A stretch of DNA of 44,509 bases from Escherichia phage JSSK01: sequence record OQ442786. One strand, given 5' to 3'. The position numbers and the translations under genes were made by a program. How positions within the stretch are numbered: the stretch's first letter is position 1; every line of letters begins with the position of its first letter. Under the pieces are notes generated by a model, which was given only the letters and a program-made list of their open reading frames with translations, ran no database searches and had not been told where the DNA came from. Shown here one piece after another: positions 6,055 to 40,038 of the stretch.

Positions 6055-6076
6055 AGCCCCGAAAGGGGCTTTCTTA
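6055..6076 (+). terminator. hairpin AGCCCC-GAAA-GGGGCT with short T-run (attenuator)
   Basis: read from sequence. Confidence 0.35.
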
Positions 6077-7622: not shown

Positions 7623-7643
7623 AGGCCCCGAAAGGGGCTTTTT
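7623..7643 (+). terminator. rho-independent terminator (GGCCCC-GAAA-GGGGC, T5)
   Basis: read from sequence. Confidence 0.65.
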
Positions 7644-7707
7644 AATGCCTGTGATTATTCCAGTTATTCCACCAAATTGTAAATGTAGGAATAAACTATT
7701 CGAATAG

Positions 7708-7736
7708 TTGACTTTTCACTAAAAATGTGCTAAGCT
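7708..7736 (+). promoter_or_regulatory. promoter TTGACT-17-TGcTAAGCT overlapped by 12-bp palindrome CTATTCGAATAG
   Basis: consensus -35, extended -10 TG, weak -10 hexamer; perfect palindrome at ~7696-7707. Confidence 0.4.
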
Positions 7737-7742
7737 CCACCT

Positions 7743-7943
7743 GAGCTTGTGAAGTATGAACAAGCGACCGCGGCGCGGGCAGGTAACGGAGCGGGACGTA
7801 AGTCCTGAGTGTAGTTACGCTGACGCGTTCGGAAGGGCCATACTCTATTGCTTGTGTAAAAAGTAACTGGTTTACTGAGATTACGCCGTTTCTATGTTTA
7901 AATGATAAGGACTAGCGCCCCGCTTTAAGGCGGGGCTTTACTT
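7743..7943 (+). ncRNA. candidate ~200-nt transcript (sRNA or leader) between promoter and terminator
   Basis: no ORF of 60 aa or more on either strand; only a 36-aa Arg-rich ORF (~7756-7866) with no clear SD. Confidence 0.25.
7915..7943 (+). terminator. terminator/attenuator hairpin (GCCCCGC-TTTAAG-GCGGGGC) upstream of spanin SD
   Basis: 7-bp GC stem followed by TTTACTT. Confidence 0.45.
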
Positions 7944-7960
7944 ATCGAGAAAGGAGAAAC

Positions 7961-8347
7961 ATGAATCTTAAAGCAACTGTCGTAGCGGGGGCATGTTTCA
8001 TCATCCTGGCTTACGCACACGGCATCTACCAGTATCGCAGCGGCTGGAACGGAGGCCGGGCGAATCTCGTTTCGCAGCAACAGCAGAAAGCACAGGCTGA
8101 GTTAGCTAAGAAAACACAACGGCAGCAGCAGGATGAATCGAAGGCCGCAGCCGCCGGCAACGAAGGCAAGACGAAATCAGAGGTGATTACCCGTGAAGTC
8201 GTTAAGTACATTAAAACGCCTGGTCGCAGCGTGTGCACTTTTGACCCTGAGCGCGTGCAGCTCAAGTCCCGCGCCGTCGCAAACGCCAATTCCATCCCCG
8301 GATACGACGATGATGCAGCCGCCGTGCAAACTGGCACTGCCAAGTAA
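7961..8347 (+). CDS. i-spanin (Rz-like inner-membrane spanin subunit)
   Basis: AAGGAG SD; N-terminal TM helix (VVAGACFIILAYAHGIY) then Gln/Ala/Lys-rich segment; contains embedded +1-frame lipoprotein gene. Confidence 0.55.
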   Translation: MNLKATVVAGACFIILAYAHGIYQYRSGWNGGRANLVSQQQQKAQAELAKKTQRQQQDESKAAAAGNEGKTKSEVITREVVKYIKTPGRSVCTFDPERVQLKSRAVANANSIPGYDDDAAAVQTGTAK

Positions 8348-8456
8348 CGACGCGGATGAGGATTTAGCTATTGACGTCCAGAACGCAGAATGTGTACGGC
8401 AACTGAGACTTAAAGTGTTCATGTTGCAGGATTACGTGAGGAATATTCTGGAATAG
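8193..8456 (+). CDS. o-spanin (Rz1-like outer-membrane lipoprotein), embedded/overlapping in +1 frame
   Basis: GTG start after GAGGTGA SD; signal peptide with lipobox LSAC; Pro-rich mature region with a Cys. Confidence 0.6.
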   Translation: MKSLSTLKRLVAACALLTLSACSSSPAPSQTPIPSPDTTMMQPPCKLALPSNDADEDLAIDVQNAECVRQLRLKVFMLQDYVRNILE

Positions 8457-23937: not shown

Positions 23938-26892
23938 ATGTCAAGCGGATGCGGTGACGTTTTAAGCTTGGCGGATTTACAAACCGCCAAGAAACACCAG
24001 ATTTTCGAAGCTGAGGTTATTACTGGTAAATCCGGCGGTGTTGCTACTGGTGCTGATATTGATTACGCGACCAACGCAGTTACAGGGCAGACACAGAAGA
24101 CACTGCCGGCTGTGTTGCGTGACGCAGGTTTTAAACTGGCAGATTTTGATTTCACGTCAGGCGGTACACTATCCGCTAACGACCGAAACACCGCAGTTTT
24201 GTGGCCGTCGTCCTCTGGCGGTGACGGGGATTGGTACTATTGGTTGGGTGCTCTGCCAAAAATTATCCCAGCGTCATCTTCTCCGCAGTCCACCGGTGGC
24301 GTGGCAGATGGGGCGTGGCAACCCGTCGGGTCGGTCGTACTGAGGCAGCAAATATCTAATGTAAACGGTGCAACTCTGTACCCAGATTTACATATGGCGC
24401 GATGGAAGGACGAATACGACCTACGCGCATGGGGCGCCGTGGGCGACGGTGTAACTGATGATACTCAATCTATTTTTAATGTATTAGCAGCTTCTCCCAA
24501 CAATTGGATTATAGACGGCAGGGGTTTGACTTATAAAGTTTCCCAATTACCTGACATTAGTAAATTTAAGAATGCTGCATTCGTTTACGAGCGCGTAGCC
24601 GGGCAACCGCTTACTTATGTAGCTGATGGCTTCTTTAACAGCTCACTAACTAAGGTGACGGATACCCCGTTCTACAACGCATGGACGCAGGATAAAACTT
24701 TCGTCTACGACCATGTTATTTACGCCCCGTTTATGGCGGGCGAACGACATGGCGTTCAAAACTTACATGTAGCTTGGGTTCGCTCTGGTGACGACGGGCA
24801 GACTTGGTCAATGCCTGAGTGGTTGACTCCAATCCATGCCGACTATAACGCCAGTGTTTCTGCAGACAGAGTTAACTACCACTGCATGAGCATGGGTACG
24901 TGCGGCAACCGATTATATGCAGTTATAGAAACCCGCTACTTGTCTAATATGCGGATGAAGAAGGCAGAACTTTGGTCACGCCCGATGCCGTATTTTAGAC
25001 ACCCAACCGGCGGAATAACTATTAGTTCTGGCTCCACTACTGCTACCATTGTTATAGAAAATCATGGCCTAAAAGCAGGAGATGCGGTTAACTTCTCTAA
25101 TACATCGGCAACTGGCGTATCGGGTAATATGACGGTTGCGTCTATAATTAACCGAAATACGTTCACTGTTACGCTCTCAAGCCCTGCGGGTTCCACCATA
25201 AACAATGCGGGGGTTACCTGGAACTTCGCAACGCGATTCTGGGACAGCCCGTGGGAAATTACCGAATTGCCGGGGGTGGCATACTCCACTAACGCTGATT
25301 TGTGTGTCACGGAGACACATAGTTTTGCGGTTATAGATGATACTAACTACACTATCGCTGTCGGCTACCACAACGGCGATGTGTCCCCTCGTCGTCTTGG
25401 CGTCTTGTATTTTAGTAACGTTTATGACAACCCAGGCGTATTCGTTCGTCGCACTGTCGCTCAGGCATACGCTGATAACGCTTCTGAACCGTGCGTGAAA
25501 AGTTATGGAGGTGTGCTCTACCTTACCACACGCGGCACATTACCTACTTCCCCTGGCTCTACACTGGCGATGAGCACCGATTCTGGGCAAAACTGGAGCT
25601 ACTTGCGATTTCCGAACAATGTACATCACTCCAATCTTCCGTTCGCTAAAGTAGGTGACTATCTCTACATCTTTGGTACAGAACGTGCCTTTGGTGAGTG
25701 GGAAGGGGGTGAGCCGGACAGTCGCTATGAAGGTTCGTATCCACGGACCTTTATGTGCAAAGTTAATGTGTCGTCATGGCCTTCATCTTTAGATGATGTT
25801 CAGTGGTTTAATATTACCGACCAAATATACCAGGGCCATATCGTTAACTCTGCAGTCGGCGTCGGCTCTGTCTGTGTTAAAGATGGCTGGTTGTACTATA
25901 TCTTTGGAGGGGAAGACTTCTTCTCTCCCTGGAGCATAGGGGATAACAGTGCGAAGTTATGGTACAAACATGATGGGCACCCGGCTGACTTATATAGCTA
26001 CCGGATAAAGATTGAAGACCACCCGTATGTATCACGTGATTTCAAATACGGAGCAACTCCTAACCGTACAATACCTGTCGCCATGGGGGTAGATGGTGTA
26101 CGCCATGTAGAAGCACCTTTAACGTTTGACAATGATGTAAGCGTGTACTCCCTGCGTGTAACGGGGCTGGAATACGATGGCACACAACAGTCTGCCGTTC
26201 GTGCGCGGTTTGATGGTGATTACGGGCTGATTTCAAAAACAGTCCCGACTAAAACTCCATCTGCTCAACGACTGATTGTTAGTGGCGGTGATGGCGCATC
26301 CAGTTCCGACGGTGCATTGCTGCAGCTGTACGGGTCGAACCATGCAACGCCTAACAGGGCTATTATGTATGCGTCAGGAGGCTTCTACTCATACGACAAT
26401 TTCCTTCCTTACTTAGACTCGCAAGTGTCTTTAGGTTCGGCAGGTAATAGGTGGACTACGGTGTACGCGACCACCGGTACGATAAACACGTCTGACGGTA
26501 CACTTAAGACGAACAAAGAGGAAATTGAGGAACAACTCCTTACCGCGTGGGAAGATATACATGTAATATCTTTTAAGTGGCTTGAAAGCCTAGCAACCAA
26601 AGGTGACACTGCAAGGATACACTTCGGTGTGATAGCCCAAGATGTGCGAGACATATTGGTCAAACATGGGCTTATGGAGAAAGATTCTACCGATTGTAAA
26701 TATGCTTTCTTGTGCTACGACTCAATTGAAGCTGTGTATGATATTGATGAAGATGGACGGACTGTACAAGTATCCCCTCCCGGCGGCAGATGGGGGGTTA
26801 GGGCGGACCAGATGTTCTTCATAGAGATTGCGTATCAGCGTAAGAAGATGCGCGAGTTCGAGAAGAGGCTGGCAGCACTAGAAGATAAATAA
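23938..26892 (+). CDS. tailspike / tail fibre with C-terminal intramolecular chaperone (peptidase S74-like) domain
   Basis: AGAGGA SD; GAVGDGVTDDT motif (~24431-24465); two Asp-box-like motifs SGDDGQTW and STDSGQNW; C-terminal SDGTLKTNKEEIE matches the self-cleavage motif of endosialidase/T5 L-fibre chaperone domains. Confidence 0.8.
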   Translation: MSSGCGDVLSLADLQTAKKHQIFEAEVITGKSGGVATGADIDYATNAVTGQTQKTLPAVLRDAGFKLADFDFTSGGTLSANDRNTAVLWPSSSGGDGDWYYWLGALPKIIPASSSPQSTGGVADGAWQPVGSVVLRQQISNVNGATLYPDLHMARWKDEYDLRAWGAVGDGVTDDTQSIFNVLAASPNNWIIDGRGLTYKVSQLPDISKFKNAAFVYERVAGQPLTYVADGFFNSSLTKVTDTPFYNAWTQDKTFVYDHVIYAPFMAGERHGVQNLHVAWVRSGDDGQTWSMPEWLTPIHADYNASVSADRVNYHCMSMGTCGNRLYAVIETRYLSNMRMKKAELWSRPMPYFRHPTGGITISSGSTTATIVIENHGLKAGDAVNFSNTSATGVSGNMTVASIINRNTFTVTLSSPAGSTINNAGVTWNFATRFWDSPWEITELPGVAYSTNADLCVTETHSFAVIDDTNYTIAVGYHNGDVSPRRLGVLYFSNVYDNPGVFVRRTVAQAYADNASEPCVKSYGGVLYLTTRGTLPTSPGSTLAMSTDSGQNWSYLRFPNNVHHSNLPFAKVGDYLYIFGTERAFGEWEGGEPDSRYEGSYPRTFMCKVNVSSWPSSLDDVQWFNITDQIYQGHIVNSAVGVGSVCVKDGWLYYIFGGEDFFSPWSIGDNSAKLWYKHDGHPADLYSYRIKIEDHPYVSRDFKYGATPNRTIPVAMGVDGVRHVEAPLTFDNDVSVYSLRVTGLEYDGTQQSAVRARFDGDYGLISKTVPTKTPSAQRLIVSGGDGASSSDGALLQLYGSNHATPNRAIMYASGGFYSYDNFLPYLDSQVSLGSAGNRWTTVYATTGTINTSDGTLKTNKEEIEEQLLTAWEDIHVISFKWLESLATKGDTARIHFGVIAQDVRDILVKHGLMEKDSTDCKYAFLCYDSIEAVYDIDEDGRTVQVSPPGGRWGVRADQMFFIEIAYQRKKMREFEKRLAALEDK

Positions 26893-26896
26893 AACT

Positions 26897-26920
26897 AAGG
26901 CCCCAAACGGGGCCTTTTCT
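26897..26920. terminator. bidirectional terminator (AGGCCCC-AAAC-GGGGCCT, TTTTCT)
   Basis: between convergent tailspike and minus-strand replication genes. Confidence 0.7.
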
Positions 26921-27058
26921 CTACTCTTCCGATAACTTCTCCAGTACAAACGCCAGTTGCGCATTAGCGGCGTCTCTCTGTTGCCGTAGTCGCAGAACCT
27001 CCTCTTCGAGTTCCTTGATACGTTTTTGCAATGCCGGAATCGGGGCTATGATGTTCAT
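26921..27058 (-). CDS. hypothetical small coiled-coil protein (45 aa)
   Basis: not in track; ATGA coupling with Toprim gene stop; ends at terminator. Confidence 0.25.
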   Translation of the reverse strand: MNIIAPIPALQKRIKELEEEVLRLRQQRDAANAQLAFVLEKLSEE

Positions 27059-27570
27059 CTGGTAAATTTCCTCGCAAGATACGTTATTTCTTCTTCACAA
27101 AGTTCATCAAGGTCGTTAGATACAAATCCTCTGGTGAATGTTTTGCTGAACTTTAATCCAGCTTTATCATTGTCGCCAGCGCACACCCAGTCATACGGCA
27201 AAAGTGACATTTGCTGCCGTAGGTCTGTTGATATATTTGACCCCAGTGCGCTTACAGCATTGAACCCGCAATTCATCAAGGCTACGGCTTTGAATATGCT
27301 TTCGGTAACAAATACCACCCCGCTTTCCGGCAAATACTCAAGCCCCCATAAACACGGCCTTGTTGTTCTGGTAAAGTACCGCGCGTCTTTAGGGTTTTTA
27401 CAGTTCTTTTCGGCATGTGGTTTGTAATGCTGGTATCCGCGAAGCCTACCGTCAAACCCCCACAGGTAAAACGTAGCTACTCCAGGGGCTAAGACTACCC
27501 GGAGACGGTCGGCGTCAAACCCACGCGCCAGCAGATGCGCCTTAAGTAGTAACTCCTCACAATCCATCAT
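27055..27570 (-). CDS. Toprim-domain protein (DnaG-like primase core or nuclease)
   Basis: VFVTESIFKA (conserved Glu) and CAGDNDKAG (DxD) in Toprim-like order. Confidence 0.5.
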   Translation of the reverse strand: MMDCEELLLKAHLLARGFDADRLRVVLAPGVATFYLWGFDGRLRGYQHYKPHAEKNCKNPKDARYFTRTTRPCLWGLEYLPESGVVFVTESIFKAVALMNCGFNAVSALGSNISTDLRQQMSLLPYDWVCAGDNDKAGLKFSKTFTRGFVSNDLDELCEEEITYLARKFTR

Positions 27571-39441: not shown

Positions 39442-39620
39442 TTCACGTTCTCCTTAATCCATGCTTCGACTTTATTACGGTCAAATGTTCCCGGTAAACG
39501 GCGGCCCATAATCTTAATACAGCAGTCAGGGAATTTGCCGCTGCGCAACCAGTTATTAATTGTCTGACGTGTCACCCCGATACGTTCAGCTACTTCATTC
39601 TGCGTCATATAATGCGACAT
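39438..39620 (-). CDS. small HTH DNA-binding protein (AlpA/excisionase-like fold)
   Basis: start reassigned to ATG 39620 (AGGAGAT SD); MTQNEVAERIGVTRQTINNWLRSGKFP is HTH-like; first gene of minus-strand operon. Confidence 0.55.
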   Translation of the reverse strand: MSHYMTQNEVAERIGVTRQTINNWLRSGKFPDCCIKIMGRRLPGTFDRNKVEAWIKENVK

Positions 39621-39651
39621 TTTTATATCTCCTGTTTGTTTGGTGAAACTG

Positions 39652-39680
39652 AGTATAGGATAGCGGGAATGTAAAAGCAA
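39652..39680 (-). promoter_or_regulatory. candidate leftward promoter TTGCTT-17-TATACT
   Basis: read on minus strand upstream of HTH gene. Confidence 0.4.
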
Positions 39681-39717
39681 CCAATCTCTGTAATATTTAA
39701 TCTTTACAAAAATGTTA

Positions 39718-39747
39718 TTGAAAGTTCTTGACACATGTTTGTATAAT
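39718..39747 (+). promoter_or_regulatory. candidate rightward promoter TTGAAA-18-TATAAT
   Basis: perfect -10 hexamer; adjacent TTGACA is only 8 bp from the -10. Confidence 0.4.
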
Positions 39748-39753
39748 GGTTTT

Positions 39754-39973
39754 GGGACTTGTATATATTACGGAGTTGACGAACCCTCCCCGAGGGATTC
39801 GTCAACCCCTCCCAGACAGCTGAGATGCTTGCCTTGGGGTTTAAGGATAAGTGTATCTAAATCTCATTTAAAGAAGTAACCCGCTGAAATATCTACTGTT
39901 TCTTAATGTGCCGTAGATTCGCAACCGTAAAAATGTAACGATTATTGGGCAGGCTTAAGCCTGCCCTTTAGTT
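39754..39973 (+). ncRNA. candidate ~215-nt non-coding transcript ending at intrinsic terminator
   Basis: no ORF longer than ~15 codons; imperfect palindrome GTTGACGAA...TTCGTCAAC; CCCTCCCCGA boxes. Confidence 0.25.
39947..39973 (+). terminator. rho-independent terminator (GGGCAGGCTT/AAGCCTGCCC perfect inverted repeat, TTTAGTT)
   Basis: 10-bp perfect inverted repeat followed by T-rich run. Confidence 0.6.
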
Positions 39974-40038
39974 ACCAAGTAATAAGAATAAAGGCACAAC
40001 CCTCCCCGAAGAATCACAACGGCAACGTAACTATTCTC

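Follow-up and report, generated by a model that had tools for sequence, protein, structure and literature searches.

The window analysed here is the 44,509-nucleotide (nt) stretch of Escherichia phage JSSK01 (sequence record OQ442786), a K1G-like Kagunavirus of the Guernseyvirinae. The element under study is the intergenic unit at about 7644-7945, which is preceded by the portal, head-morphogenesis and Ig/Hoc-like genes and followed by the spanin, scaffold and major capsid genes. We conclude that this region, with little doubt, specifies a structured non-coding RNA that is functional and forms the leader of the capsid operon. Variants of the unit among related phages are called types A, B, J and C, and the window carries A type. 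The unit comprised the following features:

7623..7643, plus strand: strong intrinsic terminator, AGGCCCCGAAAGGGGC followed by TTTTT, closing the terminase-portal-morphogenesis-Ig(Hoc-like) block
7654..7709, no strand assigned: conserved upstream control region with repeats, a palindrome and a leftward promoter-like site
7708..7736, plus strand: extended -10 sigma-70 promoter, with TTGACT (7708-7713), 17 nt ending in TGC, and TAAGCT (7731-7736)
7745-7832, plus strand: two-hairpin RNA domain of about 90 nt (88 nt) with helices P1-P4
7745..7765, plus strand: P1, the 5'-terminal hairpin, in which 7745-7750 pair with 7760-7765 (GCUUGU / ACAAGC) around a 9-nt loop
7768..7832, plus strand: long irregular hairpin consisting of P2-P3-P4 and internal loops
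7768-7778 with 7824-7832, plus strand: P2
7780-7787 with 7814-7822, plus strand: P3
7792-7797 with 7802-7807, plus strand: P4, capped by a GUAA loop
7756..7866, plus strand: 36-codon open reading frame (ORF) spanning P1-P4, rejected as a gene
7833..7854, plus strand: conserved single-stranded tail, AAGGGCC...UCUAUUG, just after which the A and B 3' modules have recombined
7855..7914, plus strand: AU-rich, weakly structured spacer with a GC content of about 0.33, under constraint in A type
7917..7945, plus strand: GC-rich hairpin of 8 pairs with a TTAA loop, a moderate intrinsic terminator in A type

The original prediction, made from the sequence alone, had proposed a promoter of the form TTGACT-17-TGcTAAGCT, which was found at 7708-7736. 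The 29-mer occurred once in the window (0 expected by chance), and transcription was predicted from it to start at about 7743-7744. Across the types, the TG of the extended -10 was invariant and was followed by C, A or G; the -35 hexamer read TTGACT, TAGACT or GTGGAT, and the -10 hexamer TAAGCT, TACGCT or TAACCT. The -10 hexamer was echoed at the transcript start (7731-7748), as TAAGCT...TGAGCT in types A and B and as TACGCT...TACGCT in J type. The second hexamer doubles as the 5' strand of P1, and the echo could be a sigma-dependent pause signal or a coincidence.

The operon that follows the unit was organised as follows:

7951..10292, plus strand: downstream operon, from the ribosome-binding site to the end of the major capsid protein gene
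7951-7956, plus strand: spanin ribosome-binding site AAGGAG
7961-8347, plus strand: i-spanin, with its ATG at 7961
8193-8456, plus strand: o-spanin, overlapping i-spanin
ending at 9240, plus strand: scaffold
9243-10292, plus strand: major capsid protein
10308-10329: terminator 3' of the capsid gene, followed by head-completion and tail genes

No second plus-strand promoter-like site was detected between 7945 and 9500. Because a terminator lies upstream at 7623-7643 and no other plus-strand promoter-like site precedes the capsid gene, the layout argues strongly that the spanin, scaffold and capsid genes have no strong promoter other than the one at 7708-7736 and that the region is the 5' leader of the capsid mRNA. 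That upstream terminator had been predicted at about 7623-7643 and was present there. It carries a terminator annotation by curators in phage Shashou; a consensus terminator scan missed it because the stem gets extended into the T run. The placing of a leader before the spanin genes also held, and was too narrow on two counts: the unit heads the whole spanin-scaffold-major capsid operon, and a paralog heads the early operon in related phages. Intrinsic terminators sit within co-directional gene arrays, and both the late and the early operons have them. A near-identical terminator hairpin, (A)GGCCCCGAAAGGGGC(T), was seen at four genome sites on both strands (6055-6070, 7623-7643, 14383-14403 and, on the minus strand, 15172-15191).

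Structure prediction from the single sequence and comparison among related phages converged on the same RNA fold. The minimum-energy fold of the 98 nt at 7743-7840 (-38.3 kcal/mol, z = -2.7, 41% of the ensemble) was identical to the comparative model. When 32 distinct sequences were aligned with plain MAFFT, without fitting to structure, RNAalifold recovered P2 and P3 with 5 compensated pairs, one of which was distributed as CG:16 UA:12 AU:4. We also built a covariance model, R1, from A-type sequences and aligned 42 distinct sequences to it; 97.9% of 1166 cells were paired, a figure that leans to the model because the alignment was fitted to it, and one with which the unfitted RNAalifold result and the single-sequence fold agree. 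Both sides had changed in 11 of the 29 pairs (85 cells), which was reached in 0 of 500 shuffles, and pairing fell to 29-40% when the partners were slid by 1-3 columns as a control. Pair types were, for instance, CG:24 UA:13 AU:4 in P2 and AU:24 CG:9 GC:9 in P4. Model R1 detected B type at 91 bits and J type at 38-43 bits.

The helices were retained where their sequences differed. J type rebuilds P1 as ACGCU-UUC-AGCGU and P4 as GGGCG-UCACAA-CGCCC, the B and L028 types have GCUUGUG/CGCAAGC as P1, and in all types P1 starts 1-2 nt 3' of the predicted transcription start. Several unpaired bases were nearly invariant, namely ACCGCG, GGAG or GAAG opposite AGYGUA, and the tail GGAAGGGCC...UAUUG; the internal loops GGAG and AGUGUA of the window belong to this conserved set. 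Across types A, B and J, GGAAGG was invariant and UAUUG nearly so. The core pattern ACCGCGNNGCGG...TYCGGAAGG gave one match in the window and none in 100 shuffles. A non-coding structured RNA transcribed from its own promoter, as originally suggested, is thus supported by fold, covariation and conservation, and the check proposed at that time, structure prediction with covariation among related phages, returned clear compensatory changes (the 11 of 29 pairs given above).

A 342-bp interval holding the unit was present in 180 GenBank phage records, 172 of them at 95% identity or more. Among the 36 IMG/VR and GenBank loci that contain the whole unit (L001-L037 minus the cut contig L006), identity over the 290-bp unit was 94-99% in 35 and 82.8% in L028. 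In most of these loci, identity was 84-91% for the Hoc-like gene and 88-98% for the spanin gene, with the latter at 77-81% in three mosaic loci (L034, L035 and L037). Divergence, taken as the per-site difference from the window over 48 distinct sequences, was 1.5% in the folded domain, 2.0% in the AU-rich spacer, 2.2% in the hairpin, 4.7% in the promoter spacer region, 7.4% in the upstream repeats and 12.9% at spanin third codon positions. Since the transcribed part diverged by 1.5-2.2%, as opposed to the 12.9% at spanin third codon positions, sequence comparison indicates that it is under purifying selection over its whole length.

Typical Jerseyviruses carried a diverged homolog, J type, at the same place (269 GenBank records). 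Three Jerseyvirus-like loci (L034, L035 and L048) had an A-type unit together with a Kagunavirus-like Hoc gene, which shows that the block has been exchanged. A more distant C type, sharing the upstream repeats and the CGGAAGGG motif, was found in phiEap-2 and Cornellvirus FSL SP-031; a broadened model, R2, placed it correctly in phiEap-2 (21.3 bits, E = 7e-4), and the Cornellvirus copy alone was not significant. The secondary structure of C type was not resolvable from two divergent sequences. Judged by these alignments, the unit is conserved at this position throughout the subfamily, in phages of both E. coli and Salmonella. In some relatives that are more distant, this slot is filled by promoter-leader-hairpin cassettes unrelated to the unit. 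Other leader types were observed before the spanin genes of relatives whose capsid protein is 87-91% identical (L363 at 1180-1570, L365 and L371; L352, L358 and L360). One of these types has a TTGACA-17-TATAAT promoter, like the early one of the window, and long covarying GC hairpins with GUAA loops, and another consists of five or more TTGCGAG repeats.

Within 7644-7945 there was no ORF of at least 60 amino acids on either strand, and the sole internal ORF ran from 7756 to 7866 (36 amino acids), in agreement with the initial description of the interval. The Arg-rich peptide that this ORF was proposed to encode was rejected. Its ATG is lost by deletion in J type and by replacement in the B and L028 types, natural A-type variants carry indels and frameshifts that would give products of 9, 17, 34, 41 or 48 amino acids, and most of the remaining differences alter the amino acid. 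This rejection corrects a recurrent mis-annotation; the region is often annotated as a hypothetical protein or left unannotated.

The leader ends in a hairpin about 14-15 nt 5' of the spanin ribosome-binding site. Its stem at 7917-7936 was GCCCCGCT-TTAA-GGCGGGGC with the tail TTTACTTATC, where a second hairpin terminator had been predicted at about 7915-7943. A hairpin before the ribosome-binding site was retained in all types with compensatory changes (in J type the stem covaries, GCCCGGC/GCCGGGC as against GCCCGAC/GTCGGGC, and the C-type stem covaries too). The tail read UUUACUUAU in A type, UUAGCGUAU in J type and UGUUACGAU in C type; in types J and C only 3 of the 8 nt that follow the stem are U, and a usable U-tail was present in A type only. 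From these sequences, only the A-type hairpin looks like a working and probably leaky terminator. Because the J and C hairpins lack a U-tract, a defined RNA of about 200 nt is a property of A type at most.

This bears on whether the unit encodes a small RNA that acts in trans as a separate molecule of about 200 nt, bounded by the promoter at 7708 and the terminator at 7917-7945, with read-through into the spanin genes as a secondary matter. Under this explanation, which we regard as unlikely, the folded 5' domain would bind a protein; that the AU-rich 3' part would pair with host or phage mRNAs is likewise an unlikely proposal. The unit is driven by a promoter of its own, and in A type its hairpin is followed by UUUACUUAU; constraint extends over the full transcribed length, including the unstructured AU-rich spacer that adjoins the terminator, and some phages have two paralogs per genome. 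A structured 5' part with an AU-rich spacer by the terminator is a layout typical of Hfq-type small RNAs. However, the missing U-tract means that a defined 3' end is not conserved in types J and C, the capsid operon has no promoter other than that of the unit, and the unit always lies in sense orientation directly before the first ribosome-binding site of the operon. Complementarity within the phage genome was not above chance, with best matches of 12-13 nt at E 0.18-1.8 (11-13 nt over all intragenomic searches, with the BLAST E value depending on the task). E. coli genomes showed no similarity to the unit, in a search that did not reach the sensitivity needed for host targets.

The same hairpin could belong to an attenuator or riboswitch-like leader, in which P2-P4 would act as an aptamer for a metabolite, a signalling nucleotide or a protein and would gate termination at 7917-7936 or translation. 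The invariant unpaired internal-loop bases between freely covarying stems have the usual look of an aptamer, and a conserved, structured, sensor-like domain with a hairpin and a ribosome-binding site downstream would fit such a role. In the window type, a 17-nt stretch of P4 (7790-7806) was 82% complementary to 7908-7924, a segment that takes in the 5' arm of the terminator, and the duplex between P4 and the pre-terminator sequence was predicted at -34.5 kcal/mol, compared with -26.6 +/- 3.1 for shuffled sequences (p about 0.01). The same test was not significant in A', A'', J, B and hybrid units (p 0.11-0.24), and variants altered on both strands of P4 keep the pre-terminator sequence, so that the alternative pairing is not accompanied by covariation. 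Pairing of P4 with the terminator was rejected as a general antiterminator, significance being confined to the type that the window carries. J and C types have hairpins that make poor terminators, the domain has been exchanged between 3' modules of different kinds, and no Rfam riboswitch matched. We consider an attenuator of this kind quite unlikely. It is very unlikely that P2-P4 represents a new aptamer class of virulent phages that gates the spanin-capsid operon and, in some phages, the early operon; that its ligand would be a small molecule, a signalling nucleotide or a host protein, and that the other, unrelated structured leaders in both slots would be alternative sensors, is just as doubtful.

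The position of P1, 1-2 nt after the predicted start in all types, and the stable covarying hairpin kept before the ribosome-binding site even where it is unable to terminate, are also what a stabilising or processing leader would show. The 5' hairpin and domain would then protect the late mRNA from 5'-end-dependent decay, and RNase E would cut the AU-rich spacer, so that the hairpin at 7917-7936 would become the protective 5' end of the spanin-capsid mRNA. Several unrelated structured leaders in the same slots would agree with this. Generic stems would suffice for protection, however, so that neither the invariant loop and junction bases across three genera nor the 2% divergence of the spacer is explained. 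Both the protective role and the RNase E step seem improbable to us.

Several Kagunavirus contigs contained two copies of the core pattern. In the second, called B type, promoter type and domain are the same, with P4 rebuilt as GUGCC-AUUA-GGCAC, whereas the 3' module is a different one and the terminator is larger. It is located in the divergent early promoter region, equivalent to 39600-40010 of the window, and was found in about 20 GenBank records. Hybrids (L093, L114 and L119) carry an A-like domain joined to the B 3' module just after UCUAUUG. The window itself has a different cassette at the head of its early operon:

39718..39975, plus strand: promoter-leader-hairpin cassette, unrelated to the late RNA

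This cassette has a promoter at 39718-39747, a structured leader of about 200 nt and a hairpin at 39947-39966 (GGGCAGGC-TTAA-GCCTGCCC, tail TTTAGTTACC) much like the late hairpin. The whole cassette was present in only 20 GenBank records and its 3' part in 334. A UUGCCGUAA-like block, sometimes near a complementary ACGGCAA, was seen in the 3' modules of most leader types, a short way before the final hairpin of otherwise unrelated leaders (L053 at ~9745-9770, L361 at ~1720-1760, and the window at 39905-39916 and 40015-40026). The motif TTGCCGTW was enriched genome-wide (25 observed against 7.5 expected); as a shared signal it was rejected, as it lies mostly inside genes on the opposite strand and is probably a codon effect.

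Sequence conservation among relatives starts at 7656, within the upstream part of the unit. TTATTCC occurs at 7655 and 7664 and its inverted copy GGAATAA at 7688 (region 7654-7694), and these repeats are retained in types A, J and C. The perfect 12-bp palindrome that had been described as overlapping the promoter is present (CTATTCGAATAG, 7696-7707) and in fact extends to 16 bp (AACTATTCGAATAGTT, 7694-7709). As a 12-mer with mismatches it was no rarer than chance, it was found in A type only, and as an operator it was rejected, not being conserved in the Jerseyvirus and Cornellvirus versions. A minus-strand promoter-like site, TTTACA-18-(TG)AATAAT, lies at 7683-7654. In many relatives, an insert of 300-800 bp that carries minus-strand genes sits exactly between the Hoc-like gene and 7656; its cargo included, on the minus strand, a 242-amino-acid DNA methyltransferase-like ORF (L011, 1400-2128) and a 114-amino-acid lipoprotein-like ORF (L004, 1682-2026), and phiEap-2 and GRNsp27 have other minus-strand coding sequences in the same slot. 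The junction at 7644-7656 is therefore a variable cargo slot that is empty in the window, and the region beside it is a divergent promoter region. In the window, the leftward promoter-like site at 7683-7654 is apparently orphan and faces the terminator.

The conserved repeats just 5' of the -35 hexamer resemble protein-binding sites. In the late region of lambda, PR' is followed by the 194-nt 6S RNA, tR', the lysis genes and the head genes. The order found here, a promoter, a leader of about 200 nt, a terminator, lysis (spanin) genes and head genes, matches that layout. In a leader of the PR' type, the promoter would be constitutive, transcription would end at the hairpin, and read-through to the lysis and head genes would be allowed by a protein of the phage that loads at the promoter. 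The -10-like hexamer repeated at the transcript start, TAAGCT/TGAGCT in A type and TACGCT/TACGCT in J type, would suit this, but the second copy has G at position 2 in types A and B and also forms the 5' strand of P1, and the early-locus paralog lacks the upstream repeats. A PHROGs scan limited to 20 small or regulatory proteins of the close relative Shashou detected no Q- or N-like antiterminator; the 18 small proteins fell into families of unknown function and the two regulatory ones mainly into helix-turn-helix DNA-binding or regulator families. The lambda late leader does not need a structured, covarying RNA, and a factor loaded on DNA would leave the covarying structure seen here unexplained. 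We consider this explanation highly improbable. In Shashou (L394), the record annotation places an intein with a homing endonuclease within the helicase gene (24885-27266).

Other known systems resemble the unit in part. The P4 CI RNA and the P1/P7 C4 RNA are small stable RNAs from the 5' part of an operon that regulate the same operon by pairing with repeated target sites in their own leader, and C4 is in Rfam. Unlike them, the unit has no such target repeats and no Rfam match. Like a moron, it is a self-contained promoter-to-terminator block between two conserved genes and next to a variable cargo slot; unlike morons, it contains no protein gene and is not accessory: nearly every member has it, and the essential capsid operon is expressed from it.

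The position at the 5' end, the occurrence at early and late promoters, the swapping of modules, the presence in different phage backgrounds, the lack of a recognisable phage antiterminator among the proteins scanned and the terminators in the operons all fit an RNA working in cis on the host transcription complex. Our tentative preference, for which we claim less than an even chance, is that the unit is a cis-acting leader RNA that lets transcription pass terminators, as put does in HK022. From the host sigma-70 promoter at 7708-7736 a transcript is predicted to start at about 7743, and its first ~90 nt fold into P1 and then the P2-P3-P4 hairpin with its invariant internal-loop bases. The AU-rich stretch and GC hairpin come next, and the same RNA runs on into the spanin, scaffold and major capsid genes. 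The domain would act in cis on its own transcription complex or transcript, most likely by binding the elongating host RNA polymerase from which it emerges. Any polymerase initiating here would then pass the leader hairpin or terminator and later operon terminators, for example that at 10308-10329, and transcripts stopping at 7936-7945 would yield an RNA of about 200 nt as a by-product in A-type phages. The A-type units in Jerseyvirus backgrounds (L034, L035 and L048) suggest that no co-evolved phage partner is needed.

In HK022, putL and putR are RNA elements of about 70 nt with two stem-loops that lie directly after early promoters and cause antitermination in cis by RNA only (PMC9378689). 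The unit shares with put its cis placement directly after a sigma-70 promoter at the head of an operon (the late locus in all members, the early locus in some), the two copies per genome at two operon heads, the downstream terminators and the lack of a known dedicated phage protein. The shapes can be compared in general outline only, and at that level they look alike, with two adjacent stem-loops with bulges and internal loops in about 70 nt of put and P1 and P2-P4 in 88 nt here. In contrast to put, which belongs to a lambdoid early region, the element occurs in virulent Guernseyvirinae and at a late promoter, and its 3' spacer is conserved too. Passage of terminators by put is factor-independent and relies on the beta' zinc-binding domain. 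The canT element of Tn916 is a further RNA that causes antitermination in cis without a protein, and its annotated small ORF proved to be RNA (PMC11658703). Here as in canT and the Bacillus EAR element, a leader RNA is proposed to allow passage of several terminators in cis, and as in canT a small ORF is non-coding. Those elements belong to Gram-positive mobile elements or operons, canT is about 340-450 nt long, and homology would not be expected.

Several points weigh against a put-like function. The mechanism is drawn from position and architecture, and put of HK022 showed no similarity in sequence or structure; the whole HK022 genome gave no match to models R1 and R2 (E <= 1 for R1), and the putL sequence had no alignable core. 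A pure antiterminator needs no AU-rich spacer, yet the A-type spacer is conserved like the domain. With their hairpins devoid of a U-tract, the J and C leaders contain hardly anything that would call for antitermination, strong terminators further downstream are few, and virulent phages often get by on leaky terminators alone.

Rfam 15 gave no match above the gathering thresholds in the window; at permissive E-values the A, B, J and C units scored at best 9-22.4 bits, far below threshold and inconsistently between types. ARAGORN found no tRNA or tmRNA in the window. A host mimic or host-derived sequence was rejected, as 5,426 E. coli genomes contained no match to the unit and a pattern scan of one genome per GTDB species returned only chance matches in GC-rich genomes, with one exception (L196). 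The exception, NZ_JACVEL010000048.1, is a 738-bp contig in an assembly of Taishania pollutisoli that is identical to a Jerseyvirus-type unit, and is most likely phage contamination of that assembly. A replication origin or primer RNA was rejected, since the extremes of GC skew, near 27 kb and 38-39.5 kb, track gene orientation, with nothing at 7.8 kb. In the literature searched on RNA, antitermination and promoters of Kagunavirus, Jerseyvirus and Guernseyvirinae, nothing on this element was found; the one Kagunavirus RNA-seq paper found gives gene-level data only.

The unit thus represents a well-supported and apparently undescribed structured RNA family of the Guernseyvirinae, of the kind of a promoter-proximal regulatory leader RNA. 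Members of this subfamily, whether K1-specific phages of E. coli or Jersey-like phages of Salmonella, have been isolated widely and serve as candidates for therapy and biocontrol, and their gene regulation is essentially unstudied. In several hundred sequenced genomes, this RNA occupies the sole point from which the capsid and spanin genes are expressed. Whatever its role, it is a new structured RNA family with natural modular variants, the A, B, J and C types and their hybrids, whose mechanism is directly testable in E. coli. If the RNA alone reprograms the host RNA polymerase, a group of phages with no relation to HK022 would have yielded an antiterminator made of RNA only.

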